Notes under the pieces: generated by a model
Databases searched by the model: none
Seen by the model: the letters and a program-made list of their open reading frames with translations, nothing else
What the model was told of the DNA's origin: nothing
Translations under genes and position numbers: made by a program
In this document: in pieces, positions 12,694-14,279 of the stretch
Position numbering within the stretch: the first letter of the stretch is position 1
Layout: each line of letters opens with the position of its first letter
Source: an uncultured Gammaproteobacteria bacterium
GTDB taxonomy: Bacteria > Patescibacteriota > Patescibacteriia > Magasanikbacterales > GCA-002688135
Assembly: GCA_964536205.1 (NCBI GenBank)
Contig: CAZHVT010000007.1
Location: 1,054-44,012, forward strand
Length of the DNA: 42,959 nt
Direction of reading: 5' to 3'

Positions 12694-12941
12694 TTGTTCT
12701 TTGATATTCTTTTGATGTATCGTTGTGCGACGAGTGATATAATTCCGAGGAAGGTGCAAGTCATCACGATTATTATTCCAGAGAGGATCATTGTTTTTGC
12801 TTGAGAAAAAATGATCAGTAGGCCGCCTAGGAGTAAGCCACAACATACAAGTATGTACACGGCTTTATAGCGGTATTTACTGAATATTATATTTCCTATG
12901 ATTCCGCCGAGAAGCGATGCTATTACTAGGTTCCATTCCAC
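12660..12941 (-). CDS. Small 3-TM membrane protein (about 93 aa), unknown function
   Basis: GTG start with AAGGAG SD; three hydrophobic segments; the longer ORF call to 13070 overlaps a tRNA. Confidence 0.55.
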   Translation of the reverse strand: MEWNLVIASLLGGIIGNIIFSKYRYKAVYILVCCGLLLGGLLIIFSQAKTMILSGIIIVMTCTFLGIISLVAQRYIKRISKNNQPRANTTADT

Positions 12942-13012
12942 TTGAATGATCTCCTTGTGTTCTACTGACTGAATACAAAATATCCAATCAGAAGGACACA
13001 AGTCCTTCGGTA

Positions 13013-13084
13013 TGCCCCCACCAAGAATCGAACTTAGATCAATGGCTCCGCAAGCCACCGTTTTATCCATTAAACTACAGGGGC
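13013..13084 (-). tRNA. tRNA-Arg (anticodon GCG), CCA not encoded
   Basis: GCCCCTG-TA-GTTT..AAAC-GTGGC TT GCG GA GCCAT-..CTAAG TTCGATT CTTGG-TGGGGGC-A cloverleaf. Confidence 0.93.
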
Positions 13085-13105
13085 GTATTTAGTTTTGATT
13101 TATAA

Positions 13106-13334
13106 CACCAAGAATCGAACGAGGAACCCAATTGCGAATATCTTACTTACATCTGCAGCGCCTGTTTTGGTTAAAATAATTTTATAGCTTCTCAACGATA
13201 CGATTGTATCGCTTCGTCGCCAGTAAAATGATTTTATCTCAAAACATGCACTACATCTGCAAGCAACATATTAGCAACTGGATTCCAGATCAATGGCTCC
13301 GCAAGCCGCCGTTTTATCCATTAAACTACAGGGG
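13106..13334 (-). pseudogene. Interrupted second copy of tRNA-Arg(GCG)
   Basis: 13287-13334 matches the tRNA 5' part (1 mismatch) and 13106-13120 matches the T-loop part; 166 nt separate them; the 3' acceptor strand is missing. Confidence 0.85.
13123..13286 (-). repeat. 164-nt rod-like hairpin inserted in the T-stem of the tRNA copy
   Basis: Minus-strand GGAATCCAGTTGC pairs with GCAATTGGGTTCC; further stems lead to a GATAC-AATC-GTATC apex. Confidence 0.85.
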
Positions 13335-13387
13335 TTAGGGCAAATTAAAGATTGCAGGAATCTTTCGATTTTTTGTTTTCTTGTTTT

Positions 13388-13879
13388 TTAGATTTTTAGG
13401 ATCCTTGCGATCTGTTCTGACATTGGTTCGTCGTCGCGTTCGAGATCTTCTAGGACGACACGTCGTAACCAGCGACGTAATTCGATAGGATCGACATCGC
13501 CCATAGGAATTCCATAGTGCGAACGGATGATACCATCAGTTGAGAGGTATAATATTTTTACTTCAGGTGGTTCGTATGCCAGCCAGAATCCTGTGAATTT
13601 TGAGTATGGATAAAATTGTTTATCCATATATACACCAGCATCAGTGATGACGCATGTATGATCGACAGGTTCGCGGAGATCGTGAACGAAGATAACAAAT
13701 GCGAATAAAACAAGCAAGAGTGCAAACAAGAAGTTTGCTGTTGAGAGAGCATACATGATGAGCAGTGCAGTTACGATGAGTGCTCCGATATACCACATTG
13801 TTCCCCGACGATGTTTTTCAAATGACGGGTATGTGAACTCGAACAATTTGTTTTTGATTGTTGATGGTGCTTCCTCCAT
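13388..13879 (-). CDS. Conserved-looking two-TM membrane protein, unknown function
   Basis: 163-aa ORF with a TM hairpin followed by a small soluble domain (ITDAGVYMD..FYPYSKF). Confidence 0.75.
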   Translation of the reverse strand: MEEAPSTIKNKLFEFTYPSFEKHRRGTMWYIGALIVTALLIMYALSTANFLFALLLVLFAFVIFVHDLREPVDHTCVITDAGVYMDKQFYPYSKFTGFWLAYEPPEVKILYLSTDGIIRSHYGIPMGDVDPIELRRWLRRVVLEDLERDDEPMSEQIARILKI

Positions 13880-13881
13880 AT

Positions 13882-14133
13882 TTATTTTTTTGAAAATCGA
13901 ATAATTTGTTTTAATGACGATTTCCCTTTTTGCGTTTTGAAGTATCTTTTTCTGCGTTCGGCATCTCGTCTGTTCTTGAAAGCCTCATAGAAAATTAATT
14001 CTAACGGTCTACGATGCTTGGTTGATATCACTTCTCCACGCTCGTGTTGTGCGTATCTAACTTTTAAGTTGTTTGTGTAGCCGATGTATAGTTTTTCATC
14101 GTACTTGCTTTGTAGGATGTATGTGTAATACAT
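13882..14133 (-). CDS. Short stand-alone GIY-YIG nuclease family protein
   Basis: YYTYILQS..LYIGYTNNLKVR..QH..G..STK.RRP.ELIFYE. Confidence 0.9.
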   Translation of the reverse strand: MYYTYILQSKYDEKLYIGYTNNLKVRYAQHERGEVISTKHRRPLELIFYEAFKNRRDAERRKRYFKTQKGKSSLKQIIRFSKK

Positions 14134-14142
14134 AAGATGACG

Positions 14143-14196
14143 GCCATGAACCACAAGGGTTCACGGCTCGCCATGCACCCTACGTGGTGCATGGCG
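14143..14196. repeat. Two tandem REP-like palindromes between tRNA-Ser and the GIY-YIG gene
   Basis: GCCATGAACC-ACAAG-GGTTCACGGC and CGCCATGCACC-CTACGT-GGTGCATGGCG. Confidence 0.75.
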
Positions 14197-14279
14197 GAGA
14201 GGACTGGATTCGAACCAGCGAGACCCCGGAGGGTCACAGATTAGCAATCTGTTGCCTTCAGCCGCTCGGCCACCTCTCC
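14192..14279 (-). tRNA. tRNA-Ser (anticodon GCT), long variable arm, CCA encoded
   Basis: GGAGAGG..ACAGA TT GCT AA TCTGT..GCTGG TTCGAAT CCAGT CCTCTCC GCCA. Confidence 0.95.

Follow-up and report, generated by a model that had tools for sequence, protein, structure and literature searches.

A rod-like hairpin of a dispersed family splits a truncated tandem copy of tRNA-Arg(GCG) in a Magasanikbacterales genome

We analysed a stretch of 42,959 nt from a bacterium of the Magasanikbacterales (Patescibacteriota; assembly GCA_964536205.1, contig CAZHVT010000007.1, positions 1,054 to 44,012 of the forward strand), hereafter the window. It contains an intact tRNA-Arg(GCG) gene and, just upstream of it, a near-identical but truncated copy that is split by a 166-nt insert folding into one long hairpin, referred to below as the rod. 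It belongs to a dispersed family that combines a conserved apex with variable but compensated stems. Only on the tRNA-sense strand is its fold preserved, and this holds even when the one orthologous locus is taken alone. The same architecture, a rod-broken copy followed by a short AT-rich spacer and an intact gene, recurs at two other tRNA genes. Rods are discrete units, present or absent at orthologous sites, without target duplication. The locus is probably a dead tandem duplicate of tRNA-Arg(GCG) that has received a non-autonomous, non-coding and strand-specific hairpin insertion of ~167 nt, the intact gene supplying the tRNA.

Results

A tRNA-Arg copy split in its T-stem

The genome under study (G000; 1.12 Mb, 20 contigs, 99.4% complete) was compared with two sister species (G001 and G002) and with two outgroup genera (G003 and G004). 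ARAGORN and Rfam detected two tRNA genes in the window, both on the minus strand, namely tRNA-Arg(GCG) at 13013-13084 and tRNA-Ser(GCU) at 14192-14279. The features of the Arg locus are as follows.

13013..13084, minus strand: intact tRNA-Arg(GCG), 72 nt, no encoded CCA (ARAGORN; Rfam RF00005, 61.8 bits)
13085..13105, minus strand: AT-rich spacer of 21 nt between broken copy and intact gene (sequence; four-genome alignment)
13098..13107, minus strand: extended -10-like box TGTTATAAAT, read from the sequence; the equivalent position in G002 is TGCTAAAAT
13106..13120, minus strand: 3' piece, made up of gene positions 52-66 of the broken copy with the T-loop, the T-stem 3' strand and the first 2 nt of the acceptor 3' strand
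13121..13286, minus strand: 166-nt insert, a rod-like hairpin of subfamily A with a paired core at 13123-13286 (164 nt) (folds, G002 orthologue, family)
13152..13153, minus strand: lower tandem GA/GA internal loop, 3' half, facing 13256-13257 (fold)
13185..13222, minus strand: conserved apical module consisting of a short stem, a tandem-GA loop, one Watson-Crick pair, a tandem-GA loop, an 8-bp stem and a 4-nt loop
13256..13257, minus strand: lower tandem GA/GA internal loop, 5' half (fold)
13287..13334, minus strand: 5' piece, made up of gene positions 2-49 of the broken copy with the 5' strand of the acceptor, the D arm, the GCG anticodon arm and the variable loop

An earlier note, made from the sequence alone, had described a tRNA-Arg copy split in its T-stem beside the intact gene, and this description was borne out by ARAGORN, Rfam, alignment and BLAST. 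The 5' piece is identical to the intact gene at 47 of 48 positions, the exception being a C at gene position 28 that creates a C-A mismatch in the anticodon stem, and the 3' piece is identical at 15 of 15 (alignment and BLAST). Alignment and fold also agree with the note in that two T-stem nucleotides, the AA at positions 50-51, have been swapped for 166 nt (13121-13286), of which 164 form the paired core. Past position 66 the broken copy diverges, and positions 67-72, which make up the 3' acceptor strand, are absent. Because this strand is missing, splicing could not restore a tRNA. With Rfam, the broken copy scores 22.6 bits as a tRNA, against a gathering score of 29. Misassembly is unlikely, since contigs from four other sequencing runs (two studies) span the junctions unchanged (13007-13312, 13060-13506 and 12854-13237) and show no variants.

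The last ~10 nt of the spacer (AAAACTAAAT) are also found in the upstream flank of tRNA-Arg in G001, as revealed by the four-genome alignment. The TG of the extended -10-like box is formed by the final two bases of the broken copy, a leftover GGTG. Judged from its sequence, the box is likely the putative promoter of the intact tRNA-Arg itself. A consensus promoter scan that requires a -35 hexamer reported nothing on the minus strand and did not list the box.

Comparison of the two copies within each genome revealed that the 5' strand of the anticodon stem is GGYGGC in the two copies of G000 but TTCGGC in those of G002. Broken and intact copies thus match within each genome, which indicates gene conversion between them.

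The fold of the insert and its constraint on one strand

The insert folds into a single unbranched helix of 68 pairs, end to end; at the junctions the helix simply stops, leaving 2 nt unpaired on either side. On the tRNA strand the folding energy is -83.0 kcal/mol (z -14.1; none of 200 shuffled sequences folded as well), against -45.4 kcal/mol (z -5.4) on the plus strand. Equal stability of the two strands and a lack of covariation among homologues had been named in the note as arguments against a function in RNA; the strands are strongly unequal, and covariation was found. The change of plus-strand A-C mismatches into tRNA-strand G-U pairs was also part of that description; the tRNA strand has 8 G-U pairs versus 1 on the other. 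The tandem GA pairs lie in three 2x2 internal loops, either GA/GA or GA/AA. When the whole 341-nt locus was folded, the two tRNA copies mispaired with each other.

At the orthologous site of G002 the layout is the same, with a rod 80% identical to that of G000, ungapped, which folds with -73.9 kcal/mol on the tRNA strand versus -40.3 on the other. For the 68 pairs of the helix, 49 are unchanged between the two species, 8 have changed on both sides and still pair, and 4 are broken. The remaining 7 have changed on one side (A-U or G-C to G-U), so that pairing is kept on the tRNA strand alone. This retention of pairs was matched by only 1 of 500 column shuffles, and when partners were slid by 1-3 columns pairing fell to 37-44%, versus 97% in register.

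A dispersed family of rods

BLAST with the rod gave one match in G000, the rod itself, and among 61 genomes including G000 the orthologue in G002 was the only real homologue. The nine other matches in these genomes were dismissed (19-38 nt, E above 1e-3); the one in G001, away from any tRNA, was rejected as chance. BLASTN had been proposed as a check in the note; by structure, however, the rod is no singleton. A covariance model built from the two Arg rods (G000 and G002) found full-length matches of 162-171 nt at 11 G000 loci, that is the Arg rod and 10 diverged copies. The rods at these 11 loci measure 166-170 nt. Over 151 genomes of the order, matches were found in 11 including G000, with 1-17 in each of the 10 other genomes out of 150.

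A structure-blind MAFFT alignment was made of 37 copies from G000, G001 and G002. It has a near-invariant apex, roughly TGAAYAAGCGAGGAGGYGAT...ATCRYYGACGAGCTTTGA, which consists of two tandem-GA loops with one covarying Watson-Crick pair between them; another tandem-GA loop lies lower in the stem, and an A-GA-T motif occurs on both arms in most subfamily-A copies. RNAalifold predicted 50 pairs on this alignment, 49 of them with compensatory changes. On the sense strand the termini read RGAAYC...GRTTCY, and the entire element is one inverted repeat. A second subfamily, B, occurs in other families of the order and is homologous but has a different apex (TTGAATAAATTTTGAGGTTTAAC...).

A motif scan over one genome per species yielded at least 124 stretches. 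Among the matches listed, related rods occur in records titled Candidatus Magasanikbacteria, Kerfeldbacteria, Uhrbacteria, Falkowbacteria, Azambacteria, Parcubacteria or Patescibacteria group. A metagenome scan with the motif gave three stretches, one of which is a further tRNA-Gln case (see below). The Rfam search that the note had suggested left the rod without a known family: none of 4227 families matched, whether the gathering score was applied or E values as high as 10 were allowed. Phage and plasmid records (blastn, E 1e-3) and the 2.9 million viral contigs of IMG/VR (motif pattern) likewise contained no match.

Strand asymmetry, orientation and signals of the rods

The sense strand of a rod was defined by the orientation of its apex motif. 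In the 37 copies, G-U pairs make up 290 of 2359 pairs on the sense strand versus 53 of 2037 on the antisense strand, with a sense excess in 37 of 37. For a further 50 copies the sense strand folds better in 49, with means of -70.7 versus -50.7 kcal/mol. The sense strand is also G-rich in every rod (+0.11 to +0.39). Flanks read on the same strand are C-rich at 10 of the 11 G000 loci (±500 nt) and at 35 of the 50 other loci (±300 nt). We therefore rejected mutational bias as the cause of the excess of G-U pairs: the strand on which the rods are rich in G is rich in C in their flanks, and an asymmetry that opposes local composition cannot be a mutational by-product.

The strong-folding strand thus tends to coincide with the locally C-rich strand, which is opposite to most genes. 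Rods placing a strong hairpin in mRNAs or in exposed single-stranded DNA may be less tolerated.

At least 10 of the 37 rods lie with their 5' end within 0-9 nt of a reverse-complement start codon (…CAT; among loci L225-L234 and L028-L053). Such rods therefore directly precede an opposite-strand gene, where a ribosome-binding site is expected. Two subfamily-B rods (L184 and L141) end in TATAATGGG...CCCATWATA, which gives an outward -10-like hexamer at both ends; the hexamers lie 29-60 nt upstream of tRNA-Gly(CCC) and tRNA-Asn(GUU) and may contribute to promoters there.

Rod-broken copies at tRNA-Ile and tRNA-Gln

A comparison of the flanks of 37 rods with all G000 tRNAs found only three tRNA species, Arg, Ile and Gln. 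In the tRNA-Ile(UAU) locus, present in G000 and G001, gene positions 1-48 are followed by a rod in place of positions 49-51 and then by positions 52-68; an AT-rich spacer of 15 nt separates these from the intact gene.

L234, G000 contig C10:45056-45374: tRNA-Ile(UAU) locus with a 170-nt rod; its counterpart in G001 is L043, and in G002 a clean single gene (L240)

At tRNA-Gln(CUG), in G001 (L039), G002 (L049) and one metagenome contig, the rod again sits in the upstream copy with the intact gene downstream, and replaces ~4 nt of the 5' strand of the anticodon stem. At all three loci the intact copy is the downstream one, and the start of the broken copy is no more than 1 nt away from the mature 5' end. 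The T-stem 5' strand is the insertion site in two of the three, and the termini of the rods, GGAAYC...GRTTCC, look like the halves of a T-arm. Each arrangement is found in two of the three sister species, that of Arg being absent from G001, that of Gln from G000 and that of Ile from G002; G003 and G004 have single genes for Arg and Ile.

Rods lying within ~240 nt of a tRNA share its strand in 7 of 7 motif-scan matches listed and in 5 of 5 of a second set, which together represent 9 distinct loci. For 117 of the 124 motif-scan stretches listed, no tRNA lies within ~240 nt. In G005 (L066) a subfamily-B rod is placed between tRNA-Arg(UCG) and tRNA-Lys(CUU) with 3 nt on each side, and in G041 (L056) a rod occupies the spacer between the 3' end of the 16S rRNA gene and tRNA-Ile(GAU).

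A short REP-like hairpin (ATCCCGAG-loop-CGAGGGAT), distinct from the rods, is found in G001 upstream of tRNA-Arg (L083) and of the broken tRNA-Ile (L043), and has many short BLAST matches across G000.

Rods as discrete insertions

When 26 rod loci of G001 and G002 were compared with G000, the site was empty in 10 (flanks 0-37 nt apart) and the rod common to both in 2. The cleanest filled and empty sites differ by exactly the rod, or by the rod and 1-3 nt, and one clean insertion falls between a stop codon and the ATG of the next gene. In G000 one rod is located between the genes of ribosomal proteins S8 and L6, on the opposite strand. The rods resemble miniature inverted-repeat transposable elements (MITEs) in being many dispersed, small and uniform copies with terminal inverted repeats, present or absent at orthologous sites. 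They depart from MITEs in having neither a target-site duplication nor, in the families searched, a parent transposon or transposase with matching ends.

Integration of the kind that tRNA-targeting elements carry out, with duplication of an attachment (att) site, was rejected: the extra piece here is a copy running from the 5' end to the T-arm, it lies upstream, and the 166-nt insert is gene-free. The core consensus of integron attC sites is RYYYAAC...GTTRRRY. The termini of the rods, RGAAYC...GRTTCY, lack such cores. A GTT at the 3' junction is found at the three tRNA sites and at L034, not at L030, L031 or L048. Recombination of attC-like or Xer-type hairpins was set aside on account of the different termini and of a GTT junction confined to some of the sites.

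The sole tyrosine recombinase of G000 (G000:C1:125640-126197, L239; Phage_integrase, E 1e-44) is encoded on another contig than the Arg locus and ends 57 nt before tRNA-Arg(UCU). RNase III is encoded in G000.

Other features of the window

The genes neighbouring the locus encode RecG, RadA, a ComFC-like protein and a TraG/VirB4-like ATPase. A gene for a 90-aa GIY-YIG nuclease (Pfam E 4.8e-13; 13882-14191, minus strand) begins 38 nt downstream of tRNA-Ser(GCU), from which two small hairpins separate it; the first of these pairs with the 3' end of the tRNA (GCCATGCACC...GGGTGCATGGC). No partial tRNA-Ser copy flanks the GIY-YIG gene of the window. A second small GIY-YIG gene of G000 is located at G000:C1:76618-76839.

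In G000 the CGY arginine codons are read by the GCG-anticodon tRNA-Arg (13013-13084, minus strand). This anticodon is unusual for CGY in bacteria, most of which use ACG edited to ICG.

Discussion

Origin of the locus

The tRNA-Gln locus gives the clearest view of how such an arrangement may arise. In G002 its upstream copy is nearly full length (positions 1-72) and carries, besides the rod, a second, unrelated insert of ~95 nt in the T-loop; in the broken copy of G001 everything after the T-loop is gone. The native upstream flank, as seen at the clean G000 locus, adjoins the broken copy in G002, and the 37-nt spacer starts like the 3' flank of the gene, ends like its promoter flank and contains no CCA. 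This pattern points to an ordinary DNA tandem duplication of promoter, tRNA and ~10 nt. A retrocopy of the mature tRNA-Gln was rejected, given the missing CCA and a spacer like the native flanks; moreover no RVT_1 match was found in G000. The earlier note had considered an insertion of a small structured non-coding element with regeneration of the gene. The first half of this proposal is supported by the empty sites at 10 of 26 loci, and the second is not supported in that form: the flanks of tRNA-Gln fit a tandem duplication, which is better read as preceding the insertion.

For the Arg locus, the history would begin with a DNA tandem duplication of tRNA-Arg, before or together with the insertion. 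The rod would have entered the 5' strand of the T-stem of the upstream copy, which may later have lost its 3' acceptor strand, and the two copies would have exchanged sequence by gene conversion. An insertion into a single-copy essential tRNA gene was presumably survived only because the duplicate was present. Recombination between the 48-nt direct repeats could remove the rod and leave a single gene, and as such recombination can delete the rod, it would account for the finding that, at every locus, one sister species out of three has the clean gene. The element may act or move while its G-rich strand is single-stranded, most simply, in the case of tRNA loci, as an RNA made from the tRNA promoter, which RNase III is predicted to be able to cut.

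Several points weigh against reading the locus as a dead duplicate that was hit by a non-autonomous insertion. The Arg locus may have had the same history as tRNA-Gln, but the similarities between its flanks are short (~10 nt) and weak, too short to prove it. The placement of the rods does not look random either: three tRNA loci among ~30 insertion sites exceed what chance would suggest, the more so because such insertions should usually be lethal, and the duplicate-plus-insertion account leaves targeting or function unexplained. Compensatory change in place implies selection on this very copy, of which a selfish, immobile relic would have no need. No target-site duplication was found at the five cleanest filled/empty junctions (L030, L034, L048, L031, L029), and the direction of each event is not proven, because a precise deletion of the hairpin could also leave an 'empty' site. 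Searches of G000 for a mobilising enzyme covered RVT_1, Y1_Tnp, the TnpB domain and IS110 DEDD, out of a larger number of transposase families, and gave 0 matches to each, and the tyrosine recombinase L239 could be Xer, a housekeeping enzyme, or an island integrase at its own tRNA. The E-values of the structure model, which was derived from two rods, are rough. As to expression, -10 boxes upstream of the 37 copies score no better than in control flanks, a T-run (U-run in RNA) follows the 3' end in none of the 37, and the nearest genes lie on the other strand in 4 of the 11 G000 rods, so that the stable strand would need antisense transcription there.

Alternative explanations

The excess of tRNA loci, the start at the 5' end, the shared T-stem site, the T-arm-like termini and the fold preserved in place keep two alternatives viable. 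One of them, which we consider unlikely, takes the broken copy and the rod as a putative chimeric non-coding RNA, an idea already raised in the note; it would be selected by the host, made from the tRNA promoter and parted from the downstream tRNA by RNase P, and the rod would do the work, for example as a protein-binding element or as double-stranded RNA that directs RNase III. The compensatory and wobble changes by which the fold at the Arg locus is kept between two species speak for it, as do the conserved tandem-GA loops, typical motifs of protein-binding RNAs. It would also agree with the position of every tRNA-adjacent rod on the tRNA strand (9 distinct loci, among the matches listed), with the native promoter flank adjoining the rod-bearing copy of tRNA-Gln, and with the rod placed exactly between two tRNA genes (3-nt gaps) in one relative, where tRNA processing would free it. 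However, each arrangement is absent from one of the three sister species, and those of Arg and Ile also from both outgroup genera; the tRNA-like part decays differently at each locus; the rods have no promoter or terminator signature of their own; and most of them lie away from tRNAs (117 of the 124 stretches listed), many facing away from the neighbouring genes. The other alternative, to which we give still less credit, makes insertion and duplication one event, brought about by a dedicated mechanism such as site-specific recombination of a small circular molecule that bears part of a tRNA, or repair of a break made by a homing-like nuclease. All tandem tRNA pseudo-duplicates that were seen carry a rod, with no rod-free one in the ARAGORN list of G000. 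The constant arrangement is in line with this, the intact copy being downstream in 3 of 3 cases with the broken one starting within 1 nt of the mature 5' end, and so are the two insertions out of three in the T-stem 5' strand, the rod termini like T-arm halves and the 90-aa GIY-YIG gene ~550 nt upstream of the Arg locus on the same strand. Against it, most rods are found at sites other than tRNA genes, where nothing is duplicated, rods have no linked integrase or nuclease, and both small GIY-YIG genes of G000 lie away from them; the lack of a CCA in the broken tRNA-Gln argues against copying of a mature tRNA, and its spacer looks like joined native flanks.

That the rod is an intron, or the locus a split tRNA whose interrupted copy yields a working tRNA-Arg, is extremely improbable. 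The insert does lie within a tRNA sequence, on the tRNA strand, and its closed helix would join the flanks. But acceptor positions 67-72 are missing, the anticodon stem has a C-A mismatch, and T-stem positions 50-51 are replaced, not merely interrupted, while an intact gene with the same anticodon is found 21 nt away. Rods also separate protein genes, as in the case of S8 and L6, where the rod is on the opposite strand. No Rfam intron family (group I) matches, and the junctions are a plain helix end with no bulge-helix-bulge. The host is a bacterium (RecG, RadA, ComFC), in which, to our knowledge, an archaeal-type tRNA splicing endonuclease is not expected.

The account of a dead duplicate with a hairpin insertion could be carried further. 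The rods may be a new strand-specific class of mobile elements in bacteria of the candidate phyla radiation (CPR), whose carrier would be single-stranded RNA or DNA of the G-rich strand, whose enzyme would belong outside the known transposase families, and which would preferentially home to helix-forming parts of tRNA genes, persist through tRNA duplication and use copies expressed from tRNA promoters as sources. We put this forward as a tentative and rather doubtful proposal.

Comparison with known systems

CPR (Patescibacteria) genomes measure ~1 Mb and are strongly streamlined, yet this lineage keeps at least 10 hairpins of ~167 nt per genome, with their fold preserved on one strand. If mobile, the rods move without a recognisable transposase, leave no target duplication and can enter essential single-copy tRNA genes; they would then offer a handle on new transposition or recombination chemistry in organisms not yet genetically manipulable. 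As functional RNAs, they would make up a large unannotated family with a defined apex that looks like a protein-binding one. The tRNA pseudogenes and long hairpins of such loci are also a practical source of confusion when tRNAs are counted, operons annotated and genomes assembled from metagenomes of CPR bacteria.

Among known systems, tRNA introns and split tRNAs share with the present case an insert in a tRNA sequence, on the tRNA strand and closed by a helix. In contrast to these, the host copy is truncated and mutated, rods are found outside tRNAs too, and an intact paralogue adjoins. Like REP sequences and REPINs mobilised by RAYT, the rods are strand-specific hairpins without classical terminal repeats or target duplications and with a chromosomal orientation bias. 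They differ from them in length (~167 nt, 4-8 times longer), in their RNA-like apex and in the absence of any Y1_Tnp match in G000; REP units measure 20-40 bp (PMC3733652, accessible part of the text). Altogether the rods fail the tests for introns or split tRNAs, REP/RAYT, att-site duplication and attC sites.

The RNA hairpins of Correia elements are substrates of RNase III, and the elements have 26-bp terminal repeats around a non-palindromic core, with a TA duplication. Unlike this, the whole rod is one helix, and there is no duplication. Correia (nemis) elements, from Neisseria, are MITE-like, 104-157 bp long, and have long inverted repeats (PMC3184786; for this and the following elements we draw on the accessible part of that article).

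The rods are also similar in kind to ERIC and YPAL (YAPL/RU-2, ~168 bp) of Enterobacteriaceae and Yersinia, which are dispersed non-coding imperfect palindromes of 127-168 bp (PMC3184786). Rods share with them the intergenic or intercistronic sites, the long RNA hairpins that would form upon co-transcription, and positions that differ between related genomes. Elements of the ERIC type have TA target duplications as far as described there (PMC3184786), whereas rods have none. There is also no similarity in sequence to ERIC or YPAL and no Rfam match, and the rods are set apart by their conserved tandem-GA apex, a very strong G-U bias of one strand and the insertions in tRNA copies.

The bcr1 element of the Bacillus cereus group (~155 bp) is transcribed and its structure is kept at the RNA level by compensatory changes (PMC3184786). 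Mobility combined with constraint at the RNA level would be common to both, transcription being known for bcr1 only. In the available description bcr1 has 5-bp direct repeats at its ends and a cruciform of two hairpins (PMC3184786); rods, from another phylum, are single end-to-end hairpins. A full-text literature search, which covered main texts in the portions accessible, returned no description of such hairpin repeats in CPR bacteria. The rods are thus a previously undescribed family with unusual features, within a class, the small hairpin repeats, that is itself known.

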